A stretch of 60,223 nt of DNA, taken from a virus. Lineage: Duplodnaviria; Caudoviricetes. Positions within the stretch are counted from its first letter, which is position 1. Each line of letters opens with the position of its first letter. The stretch spans positions 1-60,223 of IMG/VR virus record IMGVR_UViG_3300027956_000009; one strand, 5' to 3'. Under the pieces are notes generated by a model. That model was not told the DNA's origin and ran no database searches. It saw nothing but the letters and a program-made list of their open reading frames with translations. Positions 5,359 through 41,800 of the stretch are shown piece by piece. A program made the translations under genes and the position numbers.

Positions 5359-7131
5359 ATGATAACATACGCGATTGACTTTGAGTCGTATTACGACAGT
5401 GAGTGTTCCATCACAACATTGGGACCGAGGGGTTACTTTTCACACCCTCAATTTGACGCCTACATGGTAACAGTAGTAGGCGATGACGGATTCCTCTACG
5501 CCGGATGTCCGAGACAATTTGACTGGTCTATGCTGGACGACCAGATAGCATTAAGCCACAACGCTTCGTTCGACGAAAGCCTGTATCTATACGGGGTTGA
5601 GGTCGGTTGGTTCAGCCCGTGCACGCCCGCTGAGTGGCACTGCACAGCGGACATGACAGCCTTCCTAGGTCTCCCACGATCCCTGAAGAACGCATCAGCA
5701 GCGGTATTCGGTTTAGAGATTAGCAAGACTACACGCGACAACATGAAGGGTAGGCAGTGGAACTTGATGACCGACGACTTCAAGAAAGAAGTCACCGAGT
5801 ATGCCATCAAGGACTCCGAGCTCTGCTTACGCTTGTGGCAGGAGCTGTCCGACGGGTGGCCCCAAACAGAACGAGACATCAGTGAGCTTAACCGAAAGGT
5901 TGGGCAGCGGGGCATCCCCATTGATACGACGTTACTCAAGAAGAACCTCGAACAGATCCGAACTGAACTGTTCAACGCAGAGCAGTCCATCCCTTGGGTT
6001 GGAGACAGCACCCCACTGTCACGCAAAGCGTTCAACAACCAGTGCCGAGCCCAAGGTATTGTACCTCCGGCTTCGCTCGCTGCCGGTAATGAAGAAGCAG
6101 ACAAATGGTTTGCCACATTCCAAGAAGCATGCCCTTGGGCACGCGCTGTGCAGAACTATCGGCGTATCAATGCGCTCCTCCGCAAGCTGGAAGCGTTTGA
6201 TAACGGAACGATGCCTGACGGCAGATACTACGGCGGCTTGATGTATTGCGGTGCCAACCCGACGGCGCGTTTCAGCGGGTCTGGCGGGAACCTCAATCTT
6301 CAGAACCTTCCGAGGGAGGAGATGTTCGGCGTAAACTTCCGCCACATGATTAGACCGAGGGACGGATATAAGCTGATTGTTGCCGACTTATCGCAGATCG
6401 AAGTCCGTACCTTGTGCTGGCTTACCGAAGACAGGAAAGCCCTCGATCTTATTCGCGAGTCGGACGACATCTACCATGCGTTCGGTGTGTTGTTAGGTTT
6501 GCACGATCCGGCCAACGGGTCACTGCGGGACTACGATAAGCAGCTACGGCACAAGGTGAAATCAATCGTTTTGGGCTGCGGTTACGGGATGGGAGCGACC
6601 AAGTTCTCCGCATTCAGTGGCCTATCTATGGAGGAGGCTGAGAAAGCAGTCAAGTTATACCGCGAGCGCATGCCCACAGTGCCAAAGTTCTGGCGTTCAC
6701 TCGACCAGAACATGGCAACTGCCTGTGCTGTCAGCGAGCCTTTCGAGCTGAAACTCCCATCCGGTAGATCACTCCGCTATGGGAAGATCAAGCGGATGAA
6801 GGAGGCCGGTTCGGTCAGTCGGTTCCGCCATATTGGAAAGATCGTAAGGAATGGTCAGCTTCGCGACTTCCAGCTGTGGGGTGGTATTCTTACCGAAAAC
6901 ATGTCACAAGGATTAGCGCGAGACATCTTCTCAGACATGATGCTGCGGGTAGATGCCGCTGGTTTCCCAGTCATCCTACATGTGCACGACGAAATGGTCT
7001 GTGAGGTGCCAGAGGCGCGAGCCGAAGAAGCTCTTGCAAAGATCCTCGAAATTATGCACACACCACCGACGTGGATTCCTGACATTCCGGTCGCCGCTGA
7101 AGGGCACATATGCGACCTCTACTCCAAATAA
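5359..7131 (+). CDS. polA: Family A DNA polymerase with 3'-5' exonuclease
   Basis: ExoI IDFES, ExoII HNASFD, motif A ADLSQIE, motif B RHKVKSIVLGCGYG, motif C HVHDE; ATG at 5359 lies just after the terminator. Confidence 0.93.
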   Translation: MITYAIDFESYYDSECSITTLGPRGYFSHPQFDAYMVTVVGDDGFLYAGCPRQFDWSMLDDQIALSHNASFDESLYLYGVEVGWFSPCTPAEWHCTADMTAFLGLPRSLKNASAAVFGLEISKTTRDNMKGRQWNLMTDDFKKEVTEYAIKDSELCLRLWQELSDGWPQTERDISELNRKVGQRGIPIDTTLLKKNLEQIRTELFNAEQSIPWVGDSTPLSRKAFNNQCRAQGIVPPASLAAGNEEADKWFATFQEACPWARAVQNYRRINALLRKLEAFDNGTMPDGRYYGGLMYCGANPTARFSGSGGNLNLQNLPREEMFGVNFRHMIRPRDGYKLIVADLSQIEVRTLCWLTEDRKALDLIRESDDIYHAFGVLLGLHDPANGSLRDYDKQLRHKVKSIVLGCGYGMGATKFSAFSGLSMEEAEKAVKLYRERMPTVPKFWRSLDQNMATACAVSEPFELKLPSGRSLRYGKIKRMKEAGSVSRFRHIGKIVRNGQLRDFQLWGGILTENMSQGLARDIFSDMMLRVDAAGFPVILHVHDEMVCEVPEARAEEALAKILEIMHTPPTWIPDIPVAAEGHICDLYSK

Positions 7132-7144
7132 TACAACACACTAC

Positions 7145-9301
7145 ATGAAATATAGATACCTTAAAAACCATCGCGCTTCCACCGTAACCTCAGTCGAGGA
7201 CCCATCAGCCCTATCGTTCCCCAAGCCGTCGTTCGCTACGAAAGCGGAGTATCGAGCGTGGTGTGCCGACGCCAGCACCGACCACTGTTTCTATTCAATG
7301 GCGGAAGGCGACAGCCCGAACGGACGAATCAGCGAGGACAACCCCATCAACAAGCTACACGGTTTTGTGGCGGACTTTGACGCTCCAGTTGATTGGTCGA
7401 ATATCGACAACATAATCAAAATCAGATGCGACGGTGGGCACATGCCAACGTGGCGGACGCGAACCCAGTCGGGCTACATACGGCTGATCTGGGAGTTCGA
7501 TAGTGTCTTGCCGATTGCCCCCACCCTAGCTGATTCATTTATGAAACGCCTGTCCGACGGACTCAAGGCTTCGATGCTTCTTGCGGGCTTTGATAAGACT
7601 AGCCTGAAATCATCTCAGTACTTTGAGTTAGGTGAGGACTGGACTAGAATCGGCGACCCAATACCCATATCCTTCGTCAGAACCATACTCCTGAAAGCGG
7701 CAAACGATACCCCTATCCGCACCGAGGATACGAGTATTCCGCTCGACGAGATTGCTGTTGAAGTAGCCCGTCGGTTCCCGAACCGCTGGAAGGGTGATTT
7801 CGTTGTCGGTGCTCGCGGTCCGTTGTTCTGGATTGACGACGGCATCGACCGTGACGGATGTCAGGTTCGGGAAGACGGAGTGGTCTGCTACTCTGACCGC
7901 GCTGGTACTGGCTTTAAATCGTGGGCTTCGATATTGAGTAAACAGTTTGTAGCGAAGCACGAAGAGAAAAAGCTATCCACTCTTCTCGACCAGTATTGGT
8001 TCAATGGCAAGGCATACTATAAACTCCTTAACGGAGGACCTGTCATAATCCCCAAAGAGCAGCTTGTGCTGGAGCTTCGCAAGGCGGGTTTTTGCCCCAA
8101 GCTCAAGAAGAACCAGACTATCTCTGAAGTGGAGCAAGCGGTGCTCACGATCTCCAATGATTGTCGAGTCGAAGAAGTTGCTCCGGTCGTCTTCTCGAAG
8201 GAGCGTGTGGTGGGCTTCAACGGCAGGAAGATTCTGAACAACTGCCGCACCACTGCCGTAGCCTTTGCCGACAACGGCGACCCAGCTAACTGGCCGTGGA
8301 TTGAGGCTTTCATTACTCCCTTCTTTGCGAAAAGTGCTGAGGGCCATGAGACACTACCCTACTTCCTCGCTTGGTTTCAGCGCCTATACAAAGCTGTGCT
8401 GGAGTATCGGTTGGATCAAGGGCAACTGATGATCCTACTAGGACCAGCCGGACACGGGAAGACGCTACTCACCAACAAGATCGTAGGCACATCAGTCGGT
8501 GGCTTTAGTGACGCTTCGGATTACCTGTCCGGTAAGACTAGCTTTAACCGCGACCTCTGCGGATCGGCGGCGTGGGTCGTGGATGACCAGACGGCGGCAG
8601 CTACCTATGCCGACCAGCGCAAGTTCGTTGAGCTCACCAAGCGTTGTGTAGCGAACCCAAGACTGGAGTATCATGCTAAGTACGCCGACGCCATCCCACT
8701 CCCGTGGTCAGGTCGGGTTATGATGTCGCTCAACCTCGATGCCAACTCGCTCGCAGCGTTACCGTCCTTGGACAGTAGTAACCGAGACAAGATCATTGCG
8801 CTCCGAATCAACAGTGGGCACAAGGTTAAGTTTGGCTCAAATGAGTTTGTCGAGAGCACCATTAACTCGGAGCTACCGTTCTTCCTTAGATGGCTCTACG
8901 ACTGGCAACCACCGATTGAAGTCAAGGATGCCAGCCGTTTCGGTGTCAAAACCTACATCGACTCGTTCATCGAAGCGGCGGCCTACGATAATAGTTCGCG
9001 TTCAGCAATCGCTGAAATGGTCGAATTCTTTGCTAAGAAAGTTCGCGAAACCGTAGCTCTGACCAAGTGGCGCGGCACTCTTACTGAGTTCACCGTCGTG
9101 CTGCACGAATGTAACGGCGGTAGATCCGTGGGCAATAGCAACAACCTTGAGTTCGTGCGTCGAGGTATGACAGTGCTCGAAGAAGTTAGCCAACATAACA
9201 AAGGCATTAGGCCCGTTCGCAGCAAGGGTCAAGGTGGCGGTAAGATCTGGGAGATTGATCTCTCAGAGGCTTTTGACATCGACCAAGGCGGCGATTTCTA
9301 A
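7145..9301 (+). CDS. Primase-helicase (AEP-like N-terminus, SF3/DUF5906-like NTPase C-terminus)
   Basis: VADFD acidic motif, TQSG motif, Walker A GPAGHGKT, Walker B WVVDD; follows the polymerase. Confidence 0.8.
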   Translation: MKYRYLKNHRASTVTSVEDPSALSFPKPSFATKAEYRAWCADASTDHCFYSMAEGDSPNGRISEDNPINKLHGFVADFDAPVDWSNIDNIIKIRCDGGHMPTWRTRTQSGYIRLIWEFDSVLPIAPTLADSFMKRLSDGLKASMLLAGFDKTSLKSSQYFELGEDWTRIGDPIPISFVRTILLKAANDTPIRTEDTSIPLDEIAVEVARRFPNRWKGDFVVGARGPLFWIDDGIDRDGCQVREDGVVCYSDRAGTGFKSWASILSKQFVAKHEEKKLSTLLDQYWFNGKAYYKLLNGGPVIIPKEQLVLELRKAGFCPKLKKNQTISEVEQAVLTISNDCRVEEVAPVVFSKERVVGFNGRKILNNCRTTAVAFADNGDPANWPWIEAFITPFFAKSAEGHETLPYFLAWFQRLYKAVLEYRLDQGQLMILLGPAGHGKTLLTNKIVGTSVGGFSDASDYLSGKTSFNRDLCGSAAWVVDDQTAAATYADQRKFVELTKRCVANPRLEYHAKYADAIPLPWSGRVMMSLNLDANSLAALPSLDSSNRDKIIALRINSGHKVKFGSNEFVESTINSELPFFLRWLYDWQPPIEVKDASRFGVKTYIDSFIEAAAYDNSSRSAIAEMVEFFAKKVRETVALTKWRGTLTEFTVVLHECNGGRSVGNSNNLEFVRRGMTVLEEVSQHNKGIRPVRSKGQGGGKIWEIDLSEAFDIDQGGDF

Positions 9302-9302
9302 G

Positions 9303-9833
9303 TCAGGCTATCAGACCCCGCCCTTTTGTGATCTTCACGGAGGGCGGGTTAAGCTCTGATATAGGCAGAACATACTCGTCGGAGAACGACAGTTTACCGT
9401 CGTTGGGGTCTACGTTTCCTTTTGGGAGGAACAGGGCTTTCTCCATAAGCTGTTCTGCTGGCAACCAGCCCACAAGCGTGGCTAGAGTCATCTGCTGGTT
9501 ACACCTAACGAAATAGTAGACATTACATTTGCTACTGAGCTTTTCCTTACAGGCCTCGCTACCGTACACGCGAGCGACATAATGGGGTTCTGGCACGCTC
9601 GCAGCCTTTGTGGTCTTCACATCAACCGTGATACCGTTTTCTAAGACAATGTCGTAGGCGAAATTAACGTCACCGACACGGGCACCTCCGATCTCACGGT
9701 GAGTAAGTATCTCGCCCATCATCCCGATCTCGTTGCCGCGCCCGCGTGAGATAGACCCCCTTAGCACGCCCATTGCTTTTGCCTCGGCACGCGCTTGTCT
9801 CCGATCTTCGCCAGACGGCTTGGTAACTTTCAT
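9303..9833 (-). CDS. Putative PD-(D/E)XK (restriction-endonuclease-fold) nuclease
   Basis: GxxGE helix, YDIV and VDVKT motifs. Confidence 0.5.
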   Translation of the reverse strand: MKVTKPSGEDRRQARAEAKAMGVLRGSISRGRGNEIGMMGEILTHREIGGARVGDVNFAYDIVLENGITVDVKTTKAASVPEPHYVARVYGSEACKEKLSSKCNVYYFVRCNQQMTLATLVGWLPAEQLMEKALFLPKGNVDPNDGKLSFSDEYVLPISELNPPSVKITKGRGLIA

Positions 9834-10852: not shown

Positions 10853-11746
10853 CTAGAGCTTCGCGCCGTTGTCAGTATCCCATACCGGCACGGCTGGATT
10901 GTCCTTGGCATATGGCCACCACACCTGCGGTTCATGGATGAAATCGGTGCCTGTCTCGTTGGTTGTTGATGGGTCGGTAGCAAAATAGACTTGGCAAGTC
11001 GCGTCGCCGCTTTCGAGCCGCAGGATGTATTGGCAAATAGCCACTGCGTATGCGCTCCAATCACCAAATCCGCCTTCAGAGTTGTAAATGTTGGTGCCGC
11101 CTCCAAACGGAACTGGGTAGTAATCGCCCCAATACATCTCGATCTCTAGAAAGAACTGATTAGTTGGAGCATATAGCCCATCTGCCGGATCTGCTTTGAC
11201 GACTGCCACGCGTTTTCCTCGAAAGACTTTTGCATAGACGCCAAAGCCAATGTCAGGCGTCCCCCACCATTGCGAATTGCTAGACTGGGTGCCGTTAAAG
11301 TCATCCTGCTCGAAGGAGAAAGCGTCGATGTGATCCGGATCATTCCACGCGTCGCGCCACATGCCATTCTCGTTGTCTGCAATGTCGCTGTAATAGCTGC
11401 CGATACCGGAGTTGTATGTCGCTCCGTTGTAATCGTCGCCGCCGAGCTTGCAATAACCGCGCTGCTGGTAGGTTGACGCGCTTACATCAAGCCGCCGGTT
11501 TGTTGGTGCGGCGGTAGGGGCACTAATCGTTGACGTCGATCCGTAAGCTTTCCACGACGCGCTCCCTCCTGTGAACCAAGCATCTTTGACGCGATAAAAT
11601 ATCTCTGCAACTTGATCCAGCGTCACCTCCATCGGGAATGCCGTGCCGTCGCCACAAGCCACAAAGCCCTCATCAGGGGTTCCGCTAGTAACTTGACCAT
11701 CGACCCATGTAAACCTTTTATTTCGAGTGAAAACTCCGTTACTCAT
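10853..11746 (-). CDS. Hypothetical virion/tail protein
   Basis: 297-aa Trp/Tyr/Asp/Gly-rich ORF in the tail region. Confidence 0.5.
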   Translation of the reverse strand: MSNGVFTRNKRFTWVDGQVTSGTPDEGFVACGDGTAFPMEVTLDQVAEIFYRVKDAWFTGGSASWKAYGSTSTISAPTAAPTNRRLDVSASTYQQRGYCKLGGDDYNGATYNSGIGSYYSDIADNENGMWRDAWNDPDHIDAFSFEQDDFNGTQSSNSQWWGTPDIGFGVYAKVFRGKRVAVVKADPADGLYAPTNQFFLEIEMYWGDYYPVPFGGGTNIYNSEGGFGDWSAYAVAICQYILRLESGDATCQVYFATDPSTTNETGTDFIHEPQVWWPYAKDNPAVPVWDTDNGAKL

Positions 11747-13017
11747 AACGGTAGATCGTAGTAGTTGCGGTGACTCATCTCCAACCCAATTAGCTGAAAC
11801 TCTCCATTCACCACAGCTAAATCCTCAAAGATGCGGATCTCCTCAAACTGATACTGTGTAACTGGATTGTCGTAATCGCTATTGACTTTTGCTAATACGC
11901 GATATTGAGTAGTATAATCTGAATCAGGAACTGTTTCTTCTAGGGTAACAGCTGCACTATCTGCAACTATCTCACGTGTGCTTGGATCTCTATCAAAAGC
12001 CAGTACAATAAAACCAGCTCCTATTGCATCACCATCTGATACAATACCGTCAACTACGGTTTGCTTTGTGCCCTGAGTGTATATCTCACCACCCACATAA
12101 TTCCATTGTTGGACTGGCTCGGCTCCTTCTTCGCCTCCTTCTTCGCCTCCTTCTTCGCCTCCTTCTGGCGCAACTAAACCCCCATTAGTAACCTTCCACG
12201 GGTGGTGGATGCTATCCCCTTCTCCTCCCGCTCCTGTGTAGTAATTAGCCGGATCAGGGTATGTAGTTGTGTGGTCGTCGCCATCAGCTCCTTCAACTAC
12301 ATAAGCGGTGTTGGCTTGTATGTAAAATAAACCAGTTTTTGCGTTGTCCCCCCGTTTTAATAATACGGGAATTATGCTCTTCTGTTCGGGATCTAACGCA
12401 CCATACCCCTCTTTGGGGGTAAATATGTTTGCCGCACTATCAACAAAATCCCTATTGCTTAGCTCGTCTAGCTTCAAGATACCACCGTTCTGTCTGACAA
12501 GGTCCAAGGGTGGTGTTGTATTGTATCGGCCCCCAAAAATTTCCGAGTCGGGGGTCACGTCCCCAATAACTGCGTTACCATAAATTGGTAGAGTAACGGG
12601 TGGAACGTTACCCGAATTGGTGTCGGGCGTTGTCTGTGCCTGAATGCTCGGCTGGGGTTCGTTTAACGGAGTAGGAAAAAGAACAGGCGCAGGAGCCGGA
12701 GCTGGTATGGGAGGCTGGCTCTGAAAGGTAGTAACGCTACTTATGATAGGGGTAGCGCTTATCGTTGGGGGGTTTGGCAGATTAAAGTCAATGGAGCTAC
12801 CTTTAAATGTAGGACTTACTCCATTTATTTTAACTCTTTCGAGTATAGATTCAACCGTAGCTGTTATGCTCGGGGGGTTCATAAACCCACCTACGGGGGT
12901 GAGAGTGGGTAACGGTGGTGCTTTTGGGTTATCGGTTATGACTATGCTTGGATCTCTCGCAGATATTTTCTGGTTAAGATCGGCAATCGGATCTACGGTG
13001 TGCGCATCACTAGACAT
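11743..13017 (-). CDS. Hypothetical virion/tail protein with Pro-rich linker and EGGE repeats
   Basis: 424 aa; Pro-rich tract; 12-bp tandem repeat near 12121-12165. Confidence 0.55.
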   Translation of the reverse strand: MSSDAHTVDPIADLNQKISARDPSIVITDNPKAPPLPTLTPVGGFMNPPSITATVESILERVKINGVSPTFKGSSIDFNLPNPPTISATPIISSVTTFQSQPPIPAPAPAPVLFPTPLNEPQPSIQAQTTPDTNSGNVPPVTLPIYGNAVIGDVTPDSEIFGGRYNTTPPLDLVRQNGGILKLDELSNRDFVDSAANIFTPKEGYGALDPEQKSIIPVLLKRGDNAKTGLFYIQANTAYVVEGADGDDHTTTYPDPANYYTGAGGEGDSIHHPWKVTNGGLVAPEGGEEGGEEGGEEGAEPVQQWNYVGGEIYTQGTKQTVVDGIVSDGDAIGAGFIVLAFDRDPSTREIVADSAAVTLEETVPDSDYTTQYRVLAKVNSDYDNPVTQYQFEEIRIFEDLAVVNGEFQLIGLEMSHRNYYDLPL

Positions 13018-13023
13018 AATTTA

Positions 13024-15363
13024 TTAGAGGTTCCCAAGATACACTTCAACGACTTCAGTTACCCATATACCGTCCTGCCAATGGTTCGATGATATGTCTT
13101 CAATAACCCATTGCCCGTCCTCAAGAGAAACAGGCTCTGTAGCTGGAATATGTATAGCAGCCCCCGATATCGAAGATAAAGTCACTGCGATGGACCTTCT
13201 AAGGCAAGCAGGTATCTGCAAAGACAGAACACTCTTACCAAACGATATGGAATTAGATTCAGACGAGCTATCAGATAGAGAGTTACTAACGGAACTTCCA
13301 GAGTTCTCCGACGTAGAACTACCAGAACTCCTTGACGAAGAAACGCCTGAGTTTTCCGAAGTAGAATTACCACTGCTAAGAGACGTAGAAGAGCCTGAGC
13401 TTTGCGACGTAGAGCTACCAACGTTATTTGACGAAGAAATGCCTGAGTTGTCCGAAGTAGAGTTGCCCGAGCTATCAGACGTAGAGTCGCTTATACTTTG
13501 GGAAGTGGAACTACCAGAATTATTTGAGTCAGCGAAACCTGTGTTCGACGAAGTAGTGGTTCCTGAGCTGCTCGACGTAGCGTCGCTTATATTTTCCGAA
13601 GTCGAGCTGCCAGAACCTTGTGACGTAGAATAACCTTGGTTTTCCGTAGAGGAATTACCGGAGCTAGAAGAACCGCCCGAACTAGCTGTGACGCCTTGTG
13701 TGGTAGTTTCTCCTTGTTGATCCTCTGGTTCGTCAACCGGAGCACCCTTAAGGTTGCCTGATCTTAGAGTAAAGGAGTAAGAATCCGAGGTACCAGCAGA
13801 GCCGCTACTTGAAAAAGAGGACTGATTACCGTAACTATTAGATGAGGAAGATCCGGAGTTCGTAGATTCAGACGTTCCGGCATTGGAAGAACTAGACAAT
13901 CCGGAACTATTAGAGGAGGTCGATCCAGTGTTTGTAGAGTCAGACGTTCCAGAATTACTGGAAGTAGAAGTTCCAGAGCTATTGGAAGTAGAAGTTCCGG
14001 AGCCATTAGAGGTAGATGATCCACTATTCGTAGAATCGGATGATCCAGAACTGCTGGAAGAAGACGATCCAGTGTTTGTAGAGTCAGACGTCCCAGAACT
14101 ACTGGAAGTAGATGATCCGCTATTCGTAGATTCAGACGTTCCGGAATTATCGGAGGTAGATGATCCGAAGCTATTGGATGAAGATACTCCGGAGTTTTCG
14201 GAAACAGAGAGGCTGTTCGAAACAGACCGACTCTCCGACTCTCTTTCATACTCTAGGACGAAAACAAACTCTTCTGGCCTGTATACCCTACCATTAAAAT
14301 CAACTTCAGGGGGACCAAAAGTAAATTTCCTAGTCCAACGAGCGGGTAAGACTCCATCGTATTGGGGTTGAAATATCGGGATCAACGTCGGATTTTGTTT
14401 AGAATCCACTACTTCAATACGATCCAATACTCTAGGTAAATTGGAGGCTCTTCGAGAACCGTACCAGACTTGGTCATCGGGTAGCGTGTATAATCGAGTC
14501 TCTTGGCGTGCCTGTCTTATGGACTCTGGGTCTCGGCTAATGGCTCGCACAACCCCGTTATCTTCCACTGGATTTGAACCGATGATGTCTGACTCAGGAT
14601 CTACACGGGTTCTTTCAATGTCCACGCGGACACCGTAGCGTGGGTCAAAAAGAACGCCACGTAACTCGGAGAAACCTACGTCATATGTATTGTTGTCCTC
14701 ATCAAAATCTGTGATTGCAATCTTGGTCGTCTTCACGGCCTTCCCGTTTCCAATCGCCATCACGGAGGATTCGACCACACCAGTGGAGTCGTCAGGACGG
14801 TCTCCCTCTTCAACGTGGGACTCAATAATAACGTAGTTCTGATCCTCCGCAGACCGTGAAACCGTAGTGAGGGGCAGAATGTATATGTGCTCTTCCCGAA
14901 CAAATAGACTATCTAACTCAGTCTCAGCCCGAACCTGATTGACTTCATGCAGTATGTATCCAGCCTCAAACTTATCGAGAGGGGCATTCGGCATTTCGGA
15001 ACCCAACAGAGGTTCGGTTAAGTCAAACGACTCCCTTGGTGATAGGTAAGTCCTCTTTACCATCGGGACTGACAGAGTGCCTACGCGTAAGCGACCTACT
15101 TCAAAGTTGTAAAGATCTTGGTTCTCACGATCTGCCGCGTAGAAGAATTCAAATATCTCGTTGCGCTCGATGTCTACTGGCTTGACGTAGACAAGTTTAT
15201 GGTGGGGCCACTTTACCGCATCAGGATGCGGGGTTCCGTATTCAGGAATCAGGATGCGGTTGCAGTCACGGACCTCGCTGAACAAGACATCACCAGTCAG
15301 AGGAGTCGGGAATACTTTCCGATCCTGCCTAAACGGTGCTTGTGGTAGTTGTGATATTGGCAT
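13024..15363 (-). CDS. Putative tail protein with a ~340-aa Ser-rich octapeptide-repeat insert
   Basis: 779 aa; globular N- and C-parts flank two Ser/Thr/Asn/Gly arms. Confidence 0.7.
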   Translation of the reverse strand: MPISQLPQAPFRQDRKVFPTPLTGDVLFSEVRDCNRILIPEYGTPHPDAVKWPHHKLVYVKPVDIERNEIFEFFYAADRENQDLYNFEVGRLRVGTLSVPMVKRTYLSPRESFDLTEPLLGSEMPNAPLDKFEAGYILHEVNQVRAETELDSLFVREEHIYILPLTTVSRSAEDQNYVIIESHVEEGDRPDDSTGVVESSVMAIGNGKAVKTTKIAITDFDEDNNTYDVGFSELRGVLFDPRYGVRVDIERTRVDPESDIIGSNPVEDNGVVRAISRDPESIRQARQETRLYTLPDDQVWYGSRRASNLPRVLDRIEVVDSKQNPTLIPIFQPQYDGVLPARWTRKFTFGPPEVDFNGRVYRPEEFVFVLEYERESESRSVSNSLSVSENSGVSSSNSFGSSTSDNSGTSESTNSGSSTSSSSGTSDSTNTGSSSSSSSGSSDSTNSGSSTSNGSGTSTSNSSGTSTSSNSGTSDSTNTGSTSSNSSGLSSSSNAGTSESTNSGSSSSNSYGNQSSFSSSGSAGTSDSYSFTLRSGNLKGAPVDEPEDQQGETTTQGVTASSGGSSSSGNSSTENQGYSTSQGSGSSTSENISDATSSSSGTTTSSNTGFADSNNSGSSTSQSISDSTSDSSGNSTSDNSGISSSNNVGSSTSQSSGSSTSLSSGNSTSENSGVSSSRSSGSSTSENSGSSVSNSLSDSSSESNSISFGKSVLSLQIPACLRRSIAVTLSSISGAAIHIPATEPVSLEDGQWVIEDISSNHWQDGIWVTEVVEVYLGNL
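13235..14250 (-). repeat. Degenerate 24-bp (8-aa) coding repeats in two arms
   Basis: NSGTSEST/NSGSSTSS/SSGTSDST/NTGSSSSS..., interrupted by GNLKGAPVDEPEDQQGE at about 13700-13760. Confidence 0.85.
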
Positions 15364-15364
15364 A

Positions 15365-17416
15365 TTAGAATACGGGGGTTGCGACTAGGCGCATACGTTG
15401 CGGGGTTCCGGTTTCACTACCCCCCACAGAAGCCACAAAAAGCTCAACGTAGTCGTTTGTAGCGAACTCGATGATCCAATTAGTCACCAGCTTGGCAACG
15501 CCTACACCAGATTTAGTTGGGCACACCGCATTACACTGCGTGGCATCAATCACTGTTCCGTTTTTTGCAACCTTAATAGTGAACATCGCGCCGTCAGTAG
15601 CTGAAAACATATCCATGCTGGCGAACACCAAGAACCTACGGGTCGCGGAGCCTGTATAGCGTAGACGATTATCTACGCCGTTAGCATCGAATTGAGCCGC
15701 TGCGTCTAGACTCGTAGTGAGGACTAGCTTAGCATAAGTAGTAGTGTATCCCGTTGATGTTCCTGCGGTCTGGCTGCCCGTCTGGCCATATGCTGAGGCT
15801 GCGACACCCGTTCCACCATTGGTGACGGGTAGAGTTCCAGTAACACCAGTAGTTAGGGGCAAACCAGTGCAACTTGTAAGCGTGCCAGAAGTTGGTGTGC
15901 CCAATATAGGTGTGACTAAAGTTGGGGAAGTAGCCAGCGCATTGGCACCACTTCCAGTCGAAGTCGTTACGCCAGTGCCACCGTTCGCCACTGGTAAAGT
16001 GCCAGTTACGCCAGTGGTTAAAGGAAGTCCAGTGCAGCTTGTGAGCGTACCAGAAGTAGGTGTGCCCAAGATAGGCGTGACTAAAGTCGGAGAAGTAGCT
16101 AACGCATTGGCGCCACTTCCTGTCGAAGTCGTTACACCAGTGCCGCCGTTTGCCGCAGGTAAAGTGCCTGAGACGTGGGTTGTGAGCCCCACTTTTCCGT
16201 AGGCCGGATCTACACCTACACCACCTGACAAAAGAACATTGCCTGTAAGTGCATCAGCTAAACCTAAAGTAGAACGTGCAGAAGTCGCGCTAGACTGTCT
16301 GAGGAATCCAGTAGAGGCTTCCAGCATAAATGAGGAAGAAGTGATTTCCGAAACGTTACCAGACCCTGATGTCGGTTTACCTAAGATGGCGTAGCCTGAC
16401 ATGTCCTGCATCTTGGCATAGGTGACGGCGTCGTTAGCAATAGTGGTGGTTCCTTGGGTTCCAGTTACGTCACCTACAAGAGACCCAGTAAAACTTGCGG
16501 CACTTCCCGTTACGTTACCTGTTACGTTACCGGTGAGCGAACCGCTAAACGTGCCGCTCGCTGTTCCAGTAAAGGTCGGGTTGGCGATATTCGCTTTTAA
16601 ATTGAGTGCTGTTTGTTGTGCCGTCGAGACTGGCTTATTCGCGTCACTGGTGTTGTTCACGTTAGCTAAGCCTACCATCGACGCGGTAATGCCGCCCACC
16701 GTCCCAGTAAAGGTTGGGTTGGCGATGTTCGCTTTTAGATCAAGTGCTGTTTGCTGTGCCGTCGAGACTGGTTTGTTCGCGTCACTGGTGTTAGTCACAT
16801 TAGCCAAACCCACCATCGACGCGGTAATGCCCCCCACCGTTCCAGTAAAGGTCGGGTTGGCGATGTTCGCTTTCAGATCAAGTGCTGTTTGCTGTGCCGT
16901 CGAGACTGGCTTGTTCGCATCACTGGTGTTAGTCACGTTATCTAAGCTCAGGACAGTGCGCGTCTGCGCTGCCGTCAGATCTTCAGGATCACCTGTGCCT
17001 GCCGTAGCGCGTCCTTTGATAGTTGCTGTAGCAACGTTGGCGAGCTTGGCGTTTGTGACAGCGTCGTTGACAATCTCAGCGCTAGTGACAGCGTCATTAG
17101 CCAGCTTAGAGTTGGTAATAGCGTCATTGGCGATCTTGGCGCTAGTGACAGCGTCATTGGCGATCTTGGCGCTAGTGACAGCGTCGTTGGCGATAGTCGT
17201 TACGCCCGCATTGGATAACGTAACATTCCCGCTAAGAGCAACTGACGTAGCTACGTTTGAGCTGTTGCCTACAAGAACATTTCCGCTGGTCAAGGCTGCC
17301 AGTTTACTGAATGCGATAGCCGCGTTTGCTGCGACGGAAGCGTTTGTAACGGAGCCTGTAGCGGGCGTGCTAACGCCAACGTCGGAAATGGTTAAGGTGT
17401 AGGAATCGGATGGCAT
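15365..17416 (-). CDS. Tail fibre with several internal repeat families and a C-terminal beta-sandwich (C1q/BclA-like) head
   Basis: ANDAVTSAKI x5-6; 46-aa NVTNTSDANKPVSTAQQTAL... x3; 55-aa GTLPVANGGTG... x2; C-terminal ...NDYVELFV... strand pattern. Confidence 0.8.
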   Translation of the reverse strand: MPSDSYTLTISDVGVSTPATGSVTNASVAANAAIAFSKLAALTSGNVLVGNSSNVATSVALSGNVTLSNAGVTTIANDAVTSAKIANDAVTSAKIANDAITNSKLANDAVTSAEIVNDAVTNAKLANVATATIKGRATAGTGDPEDLTAAQTRTVLSLDNVTNTSDANKPVSTAQQTALDLKANIANPTFTGTVGGITASMVGLANVTNTSDANKPVSTAQQTALDLKANIANPTFTGTVGGITASMVGLANVNNTSDANKPVSTAQQTALNLKANIANPTFTGTASGTFSGSLTGNVTGNVTGSAASFTGSLVGDVTGTQGTTTIANDAVTYAKMQDMSGYAILGKPTSGSGNVSEITSSSFMLEASTGFLRQSSATSARSTLGLADALTGNVLLSGGVGVDPAYGKVGLTTHVSGTLPAANGGTGVTTSTGSGANALATSPTLVTPILGTPTSGTLTSCTGLPLTTGVTGTLPVANGGTGVTTSTGSGANALATSPTLVTPILGTPTSGTLTSCTGLPLTTGVTGTLPVTNGGTGVAASAYGQTGSQTAGTSTGYTTTYAKLVLTTSLDAAAQFDANGVDNRLRYTGSATRRFLVFASMDMFSATDGAMFTIKVAKNGTVIDATQCNAVCPTKSGVGVAKLVTNWIIEFATNDYVELFVASVGGSETGTPQRMRLVATPVF

Positions 17417-18426: not shown

Positions 18427-19476
18427 TTAAACATTAGTCCAGATGTAATCTTTATCGTTCTCTGTTGTCAACCAAGCCGCAAAAGCAGTTGATCCGGGAT
18501 TTCCGCCATACTTTATCCTACCAGTGGTGGTAACTGCCAGCGAGTTCACGAAAGCCTGCAACGCCTCAAGCGACAAATCATTGTCGCCAATATCTGAGCC
18601 ACCGACAGAGCTGAAGGATAAATTCAAACCAGTAGCTAGGATACTGGTGAGGTTGTTGTTTTCGATGTAGAGTTTAGTCAAAGCTGACAAACCTGTTCCT
18701 GAAAAAGTGGTAAGTTGGTTGTTGGGGATTTCGAGGGCGGTCAAAGATGACAAACCTGTGCTTGAGAAAGTGGTAAGTTGGTTGTTGTCGAGGGTGAGGG
18801 ACGTCAACGATGACAAACCTGTGCCTGAGAAAGTGGTAAGTTGGTTATTGTAGAGATAGAGAGTCGTCAAAGCCGACAAACCTGTGCCTGAGAAAGTGGT
18901 AAGTTGGTTGCTGCCGAGGTTGAGGTTTGTCAACGATGACAAACCTGTGCCTGAAAAAGTGGTAAGTTGGTTATTGTAGAGATAGAGAGTCGTCAAAGCC
19001 GACAAACCTGCGCTTGAGAATGTGGTAAGTTGGTTGCTGTCGAGGCCGAGGCTGGTCAACGCTGACAAACCTGTGCCTGAAAAAGTGGTTAGTTGGTTGC
19101 TGGAGAGGTTGATGGCAGTAATGTCCCCCGATCTCGTAGTGCCACCGTTCGTCACTGAAATAATCCCATAAGCGCGATGCAAACCGCTGGCAAGAATGGT
19201 GAGCGTGATGTTGTTTCCCGCCACACCCGTTCCGACTTGTGCTCCAAGAGTGTTATCAGGATTAACTAGACGAGCATATCCAGTGGATGTTTTGACCGTA
19301 AAAGTACCTGACGTTGCGCGGGTGGTGGCGAAATAGCATGTTCCTGCATTGCTGGCTCCACGAACAGCTGCAAGTGAGGCAATCAGCCTGTCACCTGCCA
19401 GAGACATAACAACGGTTGCTGGATCTTCTCCAGCTAAGAAGGAATCCATTGCGGCTGATAGTATTAAGTTGGGCAT
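18427..19476 (-). CDS. Leucine-rich-repeat virion protein
   Basis: Eight 21-aa units LSxLTxLxLxxNQLTTFSGTG matching LxxLxLxxNxL. Confidence 0.85.
   Translation of the reverse strand: MPNLILSAAMDSFLAGEDPATVVMSLAGDRLIASLAAVRGASNAGTCYFATTRATSGTFTVKTSTGYARLVNPDNTLGAQVGTGVAGNNITLTILASGLHRAYGIISVTNGGTTRSGDITAINLSSNQLTTFSGTGLSALTSLGLDSNQLTTFSSAGLSALTTLYLYNNQLTTFSGTGLSSLTNLNLGSNQLTTFSGTGLSALTTLYLYNNQLTTFSGTGLSSLTSLTLDNNQLTTFSSTGLSSLTALEIPNNQLTTFSGTGLSALTKLYIENNNLTSILATGLNLSFSSVGGSDIGDNDLSLEALQAFVNSLAVTTTGRIKYGGNPGSTAFAAWLTTENDKDYIWTNV
18640..19123 (-). repeat. 63-bp tandem coding repeats (LRR units)
   Basis: Recurring aaagtggtaagttggtt / gacaaacctgtgcctga blocks at 63-bp spacing. Confidence 0.9.
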
Positions 19477-31512: not shown

Positions 31513-32649
31513 ATGTGCTTAATCATACACAACCCGCTGTGCCGTGAAGTCTCCGACGAGATCATCGACAACGCCCTATACCAGAACCAAGACGGCTTCG
31601 GCATCTTCTACCATGACACTGGAGAGATCGTCCGCACCATGTCCGAGCGACGGGTATGGGACATAATGACCAACATCGACCGAGGCTACACGTGCCACTT
31701 CCGCTACTCGACTAGCGGCAAGGTCGGTAAGAAGCAGTGCCATCCATTCCACATTGACGAAACCTATTCGCTGATGATGAACGGCACGATCGAACGCCTC
31801 GTATCCTCCAAGTCGGTGGACACGCAGGAACTATGCAAGATACTCAAGGGACTGGACGAGGAACGCATCCTCTCCATCCTCCGCACCTACCCATGTCGCT
31901 TCTCACTACTCAATCGCAAGAGTGGTCAGGCTATCATGGTAAACCGCGACCTTTGGGTAGAGCACAAGGGCGTGCACTTCAGTAAGGGTAATGCACTACC
32001 CCAACCATCTAAGGTAGTGCGTGGGTTCTCGTCATACATCCCAGCTAAGGTATCACCTAAGCCGACAACTGTTAACCCTTGGCGTAGCTATTCACCCCCT
32101 ACAAAGCACGACTGGTCGGGCGTAGACGAACTGACCGAGTCGTGGAATGATCCGTGGGGTAACGGTAACGCCGACCCCTTCGACGGTAGTGGCATACCTG
32201 TTCAAGACTACGGGTCAGAGTGGGATGATTACTACGCCGAAATGGAGGAGGAGTATTTAGACGAGATGCCGACAGGCGATGACCATGTGGTCGCTGTCTA
32301 CGGTACACTCAAGAGTGGGCACGGCAATCACGACAGACTGATGAACAAAGCCAAGTTCTTAGGGACAGGCGAGACCTTCACGAAGTATCCGATGGTTGTA
32401 TCCGGTATCCCGTATCTGATTGATCGTGCTGGCAAGGGGCATCATGTCAAGGTAGAGGTCTATCGGGTGACGTCGAAGGAACTACGTGACCTTGACGGAC
32501 TGGAAGGACATCCCGATTGGTATGTTCGCACCGCCCTCACCATCAAGATGGATAAGGGATCAACACTCACCGCTTGGGTCTACACCATTCCTGATGAGCG
32601 TAGCTACACCCACATGGACGACACTGGAGTCTATCAAGATGAGTTTTAA
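31513..32649 (+). CDS. Class II glutamine amidotransferase fused to a gamma-glutamylcyclotransferase (AIG2-like) domain
   Basis: N-terminal MC, NQDGFG, HFRYST, HPF, NG; C-terminal VAVYGTLK, EVY, LDGLEGHPDWY, AWVY. Confidence 0.85.
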   Translation: MCLIIHNPLCREVSDEIIDNALYQNQDGFGIFYHDTGEIVRTMSERRVWDIMTNIDRGYTCHFRYSTSGKVGKKQCHPFHIDETYSLMMNGTIERLVSSKSVDTQELCKILKGLDEERILSILRTYPCRFSLLNRKSGQAIMVNRDLWVEHKGVHFSKGNALPQPSKVVRGFSSYIPAKVSPKPTTVNPWRSYSPPTKHDWSGVDELTESWNDPWGNGNADPFDGSGIPVQDYGSEWDDYYAEMEEEYLDEMPTGDDHVVAVYGTLKSGHGNHDRLMNKAKFLGTGETFTKYPMVVSGIPYLIDRAGKGHHVKVEVYRVTSKELRDLDGLEGHPDWYVRTALTIKMDKGSTLTAWVYTIPDERSYTHMDDTGVYQDEF

Positions 32650-38831: not shown

Positions 38832-41800
38832 TTACTGAAGGAAGTTAGTGTTGTAGCCATCGGCCTTCTTGGACATGACCCTGTTGATTTCGCTGGCGAT
38901 CTCATCAGGGTTCTGTTCACCGACCCGTACCTTGTTATCATACATCTTACGGAACCACTGTTCGTTCGGCCCCCAAGGGATGTTATCTCCGGCAAGGGCA
39001 GCACCAAAGCGTTGCTTACTGAACTTCATCTGTTGTGCAGTAGCCGCGAGCGACGCCTCCGTAGAACCGATGGACTGCATGCCCATCAGGAAGTCATGCA
39101 ACTTCTGTTGGTTCTTGTTGGACGCCGACTGGTGGTCATCCATAATTCCCTCGACCTCACTCGGATCGAGAGCCCTGCCGGAAGACAGTGGGTAGAGGAG
39201 TGACACCACGGCGTCAGCCGACTCTTTCAAGTTCCGCATACCACGGTACTCGATGTCGGTTACCTTGTGGATTATCGGCCTCACACCTGTGAGCTCACCG
39301 ACGATCATCTCCTTGGCGTTCTGTTCGCCATACCTTCCGATCTTCATGGCTTTGTCAACTACGGACGGCACTACCGTACCCTTACCTAAGTGCATTAGCA
39401 TCTTGAAGGAAGCACCCAACGCGCCATCAGTATCCAGATAGATCGGTTGGTCGAAGTCGTCACGGTTCTGTGCGAGTTCGAATACAGTGCTGGCTGCGAT
39501 CTGGGTTCCGATCATCTCGGAGGTGATGTAGTCAGCGATGCCCTTGATGTTACCGCGAGAAGCTAGACCGACTATGTCAGTGATTGGGCTATACGGTAGG
39601 ATGTTGGACATGTCAATAACCTGCACGCTGCCGTCTTGCAACATCTGTGCGAAGATGCCGTGGTTGCGCTGCCAAACTGGCAGACCTTGACGAAGCGCGT
39701 CGAGCTCTTCGTCGGTGAGCTTACGCACGCCACCGCGTTCGTCATCTTCGTCATCAGTCAGGAGGCTAAACAGTGTGGCGAATATCGCACCGTAGGCAGC
39801 ACTGCCGCCTGCCATAGTGGTAGTGGAACCAATCAGGCGTTTGATACCACGATTACGCATGGTCGGGTTGCCTGATTTGATTTCCTCAACAGCAAGCGGG
39901 ATGGTGTTAAACATCGTACGGAGCACCTCGGTCTTCCACCGGACGAACGGAAGGGCGACCATCGAGAACGGCGATTTGTTAAACGCCTTTGCAAGACTAA
40001 GCTGCTCCGAGTGTGTTGGGAACGTCAGCTTAACTTTGCGTGCGGCTTCGACCTCCAGTTTGGACTCAGTCTCCGTGTCGCCGAATGCTCCTTTCAACAC
40101 ACTCAACTCGTAGAAGTAGGCGTTAAGTTTAAACGCGCTGTCGATTACGTTGTTGAGTGAGGCGAGGAACTCGACGGTAGAACCGCCAGCTTGTTTCGTG
40201 GCTTCCCATGTCCCTTTGAGTTTGAACTTCTTGATGATCTTCTCAATGTTGCCACTGCCTTGTGCCTCGACGATGTCGTTGAGCAGCTCTTCGAGTTGCT
40301 GATCTGTAGAGTTGACAAAGCCATTAAGCATGTCCATTGCGATGCGACCCCTCGTCTCGTCCTTCAGCACCTGCAATTCAACAAGCCTACGAATCTGATT
40401 ACGGGACTCCTCCGACTCAGCCTTAATCTTACCGTTGAGTGACATGTTAGCGATGATCGACAAGCGAAACGCATCTTTCAGGTAGACCGGATTAACGATA
40501 CCTTGTGAGGTGGTCAGGGCGATGCCGCCCAATACGTTACGGGGGTAGAAACCAACGGAGCCTAATGTCTTCGCGGTAATTGAGAGGCCGGAGAACTTAG
40601 CTATGAAGCGACCGAACAAATTGATCTGCTCCATTGCCTTGGACTGCTGCTTCATTCCGTTCATACCCAACTCCTCGCGGATGGTGGCGGCGATGTCCTT
40701 CCTTACGTATAGTCCGGCAAGGTCTCCGAGCTGTGCCGATTGAGTCGGTGGGAAGAGGAGCTCCATGTCCGGCTGGCGTGTCCGGCTGGCTACTCCGATC
40801 TCGATTGCCTGCCTTGCGAAGTTGCGTAGGAACCTCTCGTTGGCTGCAAGTCTGCCGACGTTATACACGGTGCGGACTGCGTTCTCAAACGGGTCAGTGA
40901 CTTCGCCTAATAGGATACGCAGCGGGGCGTCGAAGTCCTTCTTGTTCAGCAGGCGGTTCACATCCTTGCGGATGGTGTTCATCGCGCCTAACTCTTTGGC
41001 GTCAGCGGCTTGGAGTTCGAGGTTCTCAAGATACTTGTCGAGATACTCAACCAGTTTCTTATCGTGTTGTTCCGCAGTGAATGTTTGACCAGTCTGCTTC
41101 GCCTCGTTGTTTACCTCCCACTCAAAGTGTTTAGCAGCGGCAGCGCGGAGCTTGTTGAAGTCTACCTCTTTGCCGTCGAGCATTGCAATACCGCCAGTCT
41201 TGGCGAAGCTGGCCCAACCTTCCGAACCGAAGAACCTGAATGTTCTGGTGAGGTATACGTCGTTGGACTCGTCGAAGTTGATGACTGCCTTATACTTATT
41301 GATCTCACCCCTGAACTCAACGAGGTAGTCAACGAGGTCTCCAAAGCCAGCGCTCTTGAGTTTAGTTTCCATTGCCTTCTGCTCTTTACGGAATGCCGCA
41401 AAGAACTTGTCAGCTTCTGGCTGTGTCAACTTAGCCTCGTAGTCGTCGGCCTTACGCTCAAGGTCAGGGTCGGTTGCGTTATTCGTCTTGAACTCGCGAA
41501 CCTTCCTTTGGATCTCTTTGCGTGCTTCACCTTGTACAACAGGAGCAGTAGTTCCGAGGATCATACCGATGTCCTCGATGCTCGCGCCACCAGCAAGGGC
41601 TGCGTCGCGCATCTTCGGGAAGCGACGATCGAAGTCCTGAATCGTATACTCAATTTGTGAGATAGTGCCATCCCTCAAGTTCAGGAACTTGCGGAGTTCC
41701 ATCGGCAGATTGTACATCTTATCCTGTACCGTCTTCCAGAACCCGCTCACGGCAGCCTTGCTGTTACCGGTACCGGATACAGGGAGCATGAAGTATGTGC

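Follow-up and report, generated by a model that had tools for sequence, protein, structure and literature searches.

The DNA analysed here (hereafter the window) is a stretch of 60,223 bp that constitutes a complete virus record (IMGVR_UViG_3300027956_000009; Duplodnaviria, Caudoviricetes). Its genes include a helicase, an exonuclease, a DNA polymerase and a terminase, and it also encodes an amidase and a protein of 4532 amino acids (aa) with an ADP-ribosyltransferase domain. The gene under study, P0001, lies on the minus strand at 13024..15363 (stop codon 13024-13026) and encodes a 779-aa protein which carries a long serine-rich insert, divided by a turn into two arms of exactly equal length. 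No Pfam or PHROG family, toxin domain families of Pfam included, matched this protein at E≤0.01, and a sequence search of the PDB with phmmer gave nothing significant, the best match (E = 0.097) being an unrelated cadherin.

All parts of the protein are given here with coordinates on the minus strand. Comparison of homologues delimits an N-terminal module (aa 1-165, 14869..15363), which is followed by a middle all-beta domain (aa 166-365, 14269..14868), predicted by AlphaFold2 (AF2) with a predicted local distance difference test score (pLDDT) of about 65-90 and conserved only in the subfamily that bears the insert. The N-side anchor strand, FVFVLEY (aa 366-372, 14248..14268), contains the conserved E371/Y372 column and leads into arm 1 (aa 373-540, 168 aa, 13744..14247), which is built of octads of the form G-(T/S)-S-x-S-x-N-S and ends in the turn residues K539-G540. 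Arm 2 (aa 541-708, 168 aa, 13240..13743) has the same 8/16-residue period as arm 1 and would return the chain to the base; the two arms meet within a tip element (aa 532-552, TLRSGNLKG|APVDEPEDQQGE, 13708..13770), whose family motif is roughly T..(D/K)(D/N/S)G|(A/V)(P/V)(L/V)..DP...R. The C-side anchor strand and the 71-aa C-terminal domain (aa 709-779, GKSVLSLQIPACL...HWQDGIWVTEVVEVY, 13027..13239) close the protein, with pLDDT 75-88 for residues 711-779 and with P718, C720, L721, H761, W762, G765 and W767 invariant in the alignment of relatives. In the AF2 model both anchors are part of 21-residue strands, E366-386 and E697-717, that reach into the arm bases, E366-386 running 14 residues into arm 1.

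The serine-rich insert and its two arms

An earlier note on this DNA had placed a serine-rich insert made of 8-residue units with periodic Gly at 13235-14250. The insert is present, its real bounds being nt 13240-14247, between Y372 and G709 (GKSVLSLQIPA), and it comprises 336 residues, nearly all of them S, T, G or N. Composition is similar in both arms, with S 79, T 21, G 20 and N 17 among 163 residues counted in arm 1, and S 71, T 19, G 19 and N 15 among 157 counted in arm 2. The 8-residue units were confirmed by Gly spacing and by self-identity: the Gly-Gly distance is exactly 8 in 14/19 cases in arm 1, and 8 in 10/18 and 16 in 2/18 in arm 2, while self-identity at lags 8/16/24/32 reaches 0.45-0.50 in arm 1 and 0.40-0.54 in arm 2, as compared to 0.15-0.33 at the remaining lags up to 33. 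This phase is unbroken by indels over 17 units per arm, and Tandem Repeats Finder (TRF) detected arrays of 24/48/96 nt at 13292-13612 and 13833-14178.

The turn peptide, KGAPVDEPEDQQGE, begins at residue K539, the turn being formed by K539-G540|A541-P542. The arms had been described as about 160 and 150 residues long and split by a short turn; the two arms and the turn stood, but their lengths had to be corrected to exactly 168|168, with the division at G540|A541. Two peptides shared by the outer ends of the arms had also been taken as a sign of matched growth. Both are present (SVSNSLS at residues 380 and 691, SENSGVSSS at 388 and 669); however, they are not mirror partners, a 9-mer shared between arms is obtained in 25/500 residue shuffles and in 55/500 octad-position shuffles, and their synonymous sites differ (13/21 and 21/27 nt identical). 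Since the shuffles give a chance level, we rejected the shared peptides as evidence of matched arm growth.

The lengths of the arms were compared with contigs from sequencing runs of other studies, labeled X5 (soil), X8 (estuary), X11 (metagenome) and X12 (freshwater sediment). A contig of run X5 spans 12900-14542 with 0 differences and 0 gaps, and one of run X8 spans the whole stretch with two indels only, one behind 13027 and one at 14573, neither of them within the arms. Because contigs from runs of two other studies cross both arms free of indels, an assembly error does not account for the arm lengths.

Two minor features of the DNA were recorded in this region. A 12-nt palindrome (containing CTTAAG) at 13742-13757 lies on the turn codons K539-G540 and is the sole inverted repeat of the insert; it is probably due to chance. 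Moreover, two antisense open reading frames (ORFs) on the plus strand, 13094-13633 (179 aa) and 13883-14371 (162 aa), display ELPEL-type repeats opposite the arms; these are a by-product of the Ser-codon repeats and not genes.

Arm lengths, mirror register and faces among relatives

Searches with P0001 returned 272 homologues at E≤1e-3, and a second search gave 389 representative clusters at E≤1e-3; the family was extended by 19 genes from 20 viral-contig loci and by 10 from 17 metagenome loci. When the C-terminal 80 aa were used as query, 6 proteins only were found. Members of the insert-bearing subfamily have in common the middle domain, the Ser/Thr-rich insert with its two arms, a mid element of 20 aa that is semi-conserved, and the C-terminal domain of 71 aa. 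The N-terminal ~165 aa are about 60% identical across hundreds of proteins (430-1177 aa) whose remainder is unrelated, and in P0254, P0126 and P0044 the two-armed module is found on another N-terminus; ten homologues of the N-terminal module matched no Pfam or PHROG family. The N-terminal 165 aa are presumed to be a particle-attachment module, and such swapping argues for the habit of fibres and spikes rather than of nozzle or channel proteins. A conserved N-terminal attachment module, an exchangeable distal part and a location in a tail-fibre gene cluster together conform to the pattern of tail fibre and receptor-binding proteins.

We scored the position of the turn in 42 distinct homologous inserts, with the anchors fixed beforehand at the conserved Y and G columns and the turn found by a position-specific scoring matrix (PSSM) derived from the MAFFT alignment A1. 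The co-variation of arm lengths that the earlier note had proposed to look for among homologues was clearly observed: the turn is located exactly at half of the insert length (L/2) in 24/42, the turn Gly being the last residue of the first half, and it is 1 residue off in 2 further inserts and 3-4 residues off in 3. The exact inserts fall into 13 length classes, with L = 248, 256, 320, 322, 336, 352, 364 (two clades), 368, 384, 432, 568 and 680, that is, half lengths of 124, 128, 160, 161, 168, 176, 182 (twice), 184, 192, 216, 284 and 340. Any other fixed anchor columns would shift all inserts by one constant, thus the constancy itself is the result.

This equality does not depend on the arms being copies of each other. 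L027 has S-rich 10-mers in the outgoing arm and T-rich 10-mers in the returning one, and is still 340|340; in L032 (284|284) the arms are likewise made of different units, and gene conversion is therefore not the source of the equality. A symmetry acting at the DNA or RNA level was also considered and rejected, as no inverted DNA repeat between the arms was found in a search over the insert. Equality in spite of different units, together with this lack of an inverted repeat, indicates selection on the protein and not a DNA mechanism.

In most of 18 representatives the two arms share one dominant repeat period, which varies from protein to protein; about 14 show it clearly, and it is weak or mixed in P0013, L037, P0041 and L018. 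Even lags exceed odd lags in 18/18. Periods of 4, 6/12, 8/16 and 10/20 residues occur in different relatives, with base and tip unchanged. Paired indels were also detected when relatives were compared, although their placement is alignment-dependent: P0013 and P0254 differ by 22 aa at 128-150 residues from the turn in one arm and 22 aa at 112-134 in the other, and by 4 aa in each arm near the base, and between P0044 and P0041 a difference of 21 aa, 79-100 residues from the turn, is matched by one of 19 aa at 65-84.

If residue i of the insert is set opposite residue L+1-i, the two arms can be read as a mirror register, for which we scanned offsets from -26 to +26. The number of Gly-Gly pairs across the two strands, totalled for 13 clade representatives, has its global maximum at offset 0 (176 pairs), with 133 and 139 pairs at ±24, ≤100 at other even offsets and ≤7 at odd offsets; clades with periods of 4, 6, 8 and 10 share the in-phase Gly at offset 0. 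Taken one by one, 13/21 representatives peak in Gly pairing at offset 0, 6 of these reaching an equal value at another in-phase offset, and a further 3 are in phase there.

Charged residues also respond to the register. The excess of opposite- over like-charge pairs amounts to +9, +17, +15 and +21 at offsets 0, 2, 4 and 6 and is positive only there, the null from even offsets with |offset|>8 being -4.8 ± 4.2 with a maximum of 4; when the two most charged proteins were removed the signal became weaker yet remained clear (offset +2 = +6 versus a null of -4.8 ± 2.5). P0058 and P0045 have K-rich and E-rich blocks mirrored between the arms, and in P0058 the K-rich block of one arm stands opposite the E-rich block of the other, with the next blocks reversed. 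A charge correlation smoothed over blocks and centred only approximately carried no information, the signal being seen only with the exact register, and hydrophobic-hydrophobic mirror pairs showed no peak (35 at offset 0 versus 16-32 elsewhere). The proposal of the earlier note that the arms are a matched antiparallel pair with a length set by repeat number is upheld by the midpoint turn, the Gly phasing and the charge complementarity.

Periodicity of this kind would also be expected from some other compact fold with pseudo-two-fold symmetry, such as two beta-solenoids packed antiparallel side by side, or a superhelical ribbon, either of which would be about 5-15 nm long. The nested 8/16/32-residue periodicity, the fixed Gly positions and the Thr-rich faces are in line with a solenoid, and block-level charge mirroring fits side-by-side packing. 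However, neither the residue-exact equality of the arms nor the residue-level Gly phasing is required by such a fold; the period varies (4, 6, 8, 10, 12) while base and tip are conserved, so that there is no conserved coil geometry, and 4 residues, the shortest period, are too few to form one side of a solenoid. We thus consider this fold unlikely.

The arms have two clearly different faces, formed by alternate residues. In 14/15 representatives the face that carries Gly is composed of S (29-61%) and G (14-33%) plus N/Q, with 0-5% of hydrophobic and 1-6% of charged residues, and Thr makes up 2-12% of it as compared to 20-58% of the opposite face; the latter holds, besides Ser, nearly all the charged (up to 44%) and hydrophobic (up to 16%) residues.

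These faces bear on a further proposal of the earlier note, namely that a ring of copies could form a hydrophilic conduit in place of a tape measure. In structural terms, 6-12 copies placed on the tail axis would build a 12-24-stranded hollow tube lined by Ser, Gly and Asn, an arrangement that we regard as very unlikely; the role attached to it, that of an uncharged beta-nanotube tens of nm long and of digital length, acting as a nozzle across a thick envelope in a phage without a tape measure, is in our judgement just as improbable. The hairpin and the repeat-set length on which this idea relies are supported by our results, both faces are polar, the nearly charge-free Gly face would suit an inert lumen, and there is a precedent among podophages for the remodelling of tail proteins into a nozzle, namely phage SU10 (PMC9509320). 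Nevertheless, Thr, charged and hydrophobic residues are kept off the Gly face, which points to steric packing and not to a wide water-filled lumen, and by our own calculation from standard barrel geometry a tube of 12 strands would not be wide enough inside to hold double-stranded DNA. The tip has no hydrophobic stripe and is acidic, carrying D, E and two Pro, and the N-terminal module is swapped among unrelated proteins while the hairpin is found on other N-termini, unlike what is seen in conserved nozzle proteins. The small-residue Gly face, the acidic Pro-containing tip and the swappable N-terminus thus argue against the conduit, which would require a ring of copies that nothing in our results supports.

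A candidate fold-back hairpin fibre

The reading that we favour, and hold to be probable, is that the insert is one very long in-register antiparallel beta-hairpin, likely part of a thin oligomeric fibre of adjustable length. It is preferred because the equality of the arms, the Gly phasing, the charges and the faces all fit an antiparallel hairpin, and none of them is needed by a disordered linker or by independent solenoids. In P0001 the chain would leave the folded base at Y372, run 168 residues out to the tip, reverse at the conserved Gly turn (K539-G540|A541-P542) and come back 168 residues in register to G709, where the 71-aa C-terminal domain would rejoin the base. Alternate residues would form a face made only of Ser, Gly, Asn and Gln, presumably buried, and the opposite face, with Thr, charged and hydrophobic residues, would be exposed.

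A lone two-stranded ribbon is not stable, and for this reason several copies are expected to pack together through their small polar faces into a thin needle; since the Gly face excludes even Thr, a narrow rod of tightly packed hairpins is suggested, and the modular tail-protein context makes a trimer, as in tail fibres, the likeliest assembly. The needle formed by arms of 168 residues would measure roughly 40-55 nm, the range being bounded by 0.23 nm/residue (scaled from T4 gp37, ~40 nm) and 0.33 nm/residue (fully extended, ~55 nm). Its length would be digital, with even-length units (4, 6, 8, 10 or 12 aa) gained or lost in both arms and natural arms of 124 to 340 residues, and the hairpin may hold its conserved tip away from the particle, like a fibre or whisker that contacts the host surface and sets the reach.

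A possible origin of the insert can be seen in distant relatives. P0205, P0157 and P0149, matched by a hidden Markov model (HMM) of the C-terminal domain with E values of 3e-8, 3e-6 and 0.02, respectively, contain at the insert site only a short stretch that includes a Gly-rich turn (EGNG, KSGVG and NKNG; residues ~779-799, ~470-500 and ~397-432), where P0001-type relatives have 248-680 aa. The short Gly-turn segment suggests an unexpanded hairpin, later lengthened by repeats.

The nearest known design appears to be the tip needle of T4 gp37. In published structural work, domain D10 of gp37 is made of residues 811-881 and 1010-1026 and D11 of residues 882-1009, so that the chain goes to the tip and back with 64 residues per arm (PMC6957217), and the needle measures about 150 x 25 Å (PMC3004832). 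The segments that flank the excursion are reported to form the collar, the needle is six-stranded and antiparallel, and the receptor site is at the turn. By analogy, and with a topology deduced from the sequence, the flanking segments of P0001 would form the base and its turn the tip. The arms of gp37, as given there, are ~64 residues long and non-repetitive, around a core of seven His-coordinated iron ions, whereas those of the P0001 family have 124-340 residues in even-length Ser/Thr/Gly/Asn repeats, are variable in length, and would be metal-free and packed by a Ser/Gly/Asn/Gln face. We looked for the iron-binding His-x-His feature of gp37, but the 320 residues counted in the arms of P0001 include no His, and neither phmmer against the PDB nor Foldseek detected any sequence or fold similarity to gp37 or to the gp12 collar.

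Two other groups of proteins share some of these traits. The beta-pore-forming toxins (aerolysin, alpha-haemolysin, anthrax protective antigen) contribute one Ser/Thr-rich alternating hairpin per protomer to an oligomeric beta-barrel, the stem hairpins having arms of about 20-40 residues and, close to the turn, a hydrophobic belt that faces the membrane. The P0001 family resembles them in its alternating-face Ser/Thr-rich hairpin (14/15 representatives); unlike them, its arms are 4-10x longer, without a hydrophobic belt, and have an acidic tip and one face of very small polar residues. Beta-solenoids of the ice-nucleation and antifreeze type are built of Thr/Ser/Gly-rich repeats with an 8/16/48-residue hierarchy and Thr-lined flat faces. 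Nested periods of 8 and 16 residues are also found in the P0001 insert; solenoids, however, need no mirror arm, while the P0001 family varies the coil period and keeps mirror-equal arms.

Several of our results weigh against a hairpin of this kind. First, the arms are mismatched by 12 to 211 residues in 13/42 inserts, including that of P0005, a fairly close relative, with arms of 96|168, and those of P0023 and L004-L008. Several of these mismatches correspond to whole repeat units (12, 48, 72 residues), and one mismatched insert lacks any mid element. Five of them are at loci with perfect tandem arrays of 83-191 nt, compared to 9-83 nt at symmetric loci, and a collapse of repeats during assembly is plausible there. 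Second, the Gly phase is not at offset 0 in 5/21 representatives (P0254, P0126, P0044, P0041 and L012), and face segregation is weak in P0041. Third, charge complementarity peaks at +2 to +6 and not at 0, hence either the register is known only within a few residues, or the pairs are diagonal or between subunits. Finally, structure predictors assigned low confidence to the arms, with a pLDDT of about 25 over residues 382-702 in the AF2 model of the full protein, a mean pLDDT of 36.6 and no secondary structure for a 120-aa tip fragment with 15 aligned relatives, and a pLDDT of 0.39 for the whole-protein model of the ESM Atlas, and the composition of the arms is typical of disordered linkers. 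On a cautious view these predictions would count against the hairpin, or at best be neutral.

The same predictions, together with the S/T/G/N composition and a repeat copy number that varies among relatives, favor a disordered and possibly modified Ser/Thr-rich stalk, in which the arms would be flexible linkers tethering a small central peptide and the repeats would reflect DNA slippage only. A linker, though, has no need for halves that are exactly equal in 24/42 inserts and 13 classes. Disorder also leaves unexplained the Gly mirror phase common to clades of different period and the register-specific charge complementarity, and it does not agree with the strict two-residue segregation of the faces, the equal period in both arms and the unbroken 8-residue phase. 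We therefore judge such a stalk to be quite unlikely, and retain the fold-back hairpin as the probable structure.

Searches with the predicted models added little. The ESM Atlas gave only leads below 0.9, and Foldseek of the full model, flanking domains included, produced 0 matches in the PDB at E≤0.001 and a single uncharacterised phage protein in BFVD. Matches of the tail knob, tubular protein B and P22 gp10 type had E values of 0.2-0.9 and probabilities ≤0.03 and were not used as evidence. A three-copy complex prediction for the C-terminal module of the short-armed homologue P0013 (366-697, alignment A2) returned no verdict (score 0.00), the fold of the partner being itself uncertain, and bears on the assembly in neither direction.

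A further observation concerns L004-L006, three near-identical genes of viral contigs (at about 6001-9700), in which arm 1 always has 359 residues of TSTN units and the second arms, of TSTG units, have 188, 344 and 380 residues. This represents either an unresolved repeat copy number in the assemblies or a live variation in the length of one arm.

No serine-rich or long-hairpin phage fibre of such kind is described in the literature that we searched. If the proposed structure is true, it would be a protein-rod design new to that literature, one hairpin whose arms can each reach 340 residues, with neither metal nor hydrophobic core, held by a Ser/Gly/Asn/Gln face and adjustable in steps of one repeat unit when both arms change together. 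The 13 natural length classes would then offer a test series for how long polar beta-ribbons are stabilised, and would also bear on the co-evolution of two repeat arrays under a register constraint and on the tuning of fibre reach to the host surface layer. It would also be a case in which structure predictors call disordered a region that is strongly constrained by sequence statistics.

Neighbouring genes and other features of the window

Upstream of P0001, on the same minus strand, lies the gene of a 683-aa tail fibre protein (15365..17416; PHROG tail-fibre families, Pfam DUF5907), whose end at 15365 is two bases upstream of the 779-aa ORF. Among relatives only the N-terminal ~99 aa of this fibre are kept, and a pair of neighbouring genes that each join a conserved N-terminus to an exchangeable distal part is the usual pattern of receptor-binding proteins. 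The fibre also contains three near-identical tandem repeats of ~45 aa (NVTNTSDANKPVSTAQQTALDLKANIANPTFTGT...) and a duplicated block of ~50 aa near residue 430.

The gene order is conserved among relatives as fibre, the gene of the 779-aa protein, variable genes, p314, p176 and primase. The downstream neighbour p424 (11743-13017, minus strand) encodes 424 aa with a Pro-rich N-terminal half and an acidic repeat, GGEEGGEEGGEEG; in relatives it is replaced or only 26-49% identical, while p314 and p176 farther downstream are conserved. This protein might serve the fibre as a partner or chaperone. No family was matched in Pfam or PHROGs by p424, p297 and p314, nor in Pfam, the only collection used in this case, by p176.

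The GenBank phage collection contained no match to the 779-aa gene (as DNA or protein), to the terminase or to a 748-aa protein of the structural block, and thus no cultured relative from which to assign a tail type.

Elsewhere in the window, a single ORF of 4532 aa (38832-52430, minus strand) takes up 23% of the 60-kb genome and has an ART-PolyVal ADP-ribosyltransferase domain at residues 3074-3267; its product looks like a giant polyvalent protein, probably delivered with the virion. A leucine-rich-repeat protein (18427-19476, minus strand; LRR_4, LRR_8, E about 1e-23) is encoded between the amidase and the tail fibre, inside the structural/lysis block. Lastly, a plus-strand block inserted between structural gene blocks includes a gene (31513-32649, plus strand) for a 378-aa protein with a C-terminal domain similar to gamma-glutamyl cyclotransferase (phrog_2520, E = 6e-25).

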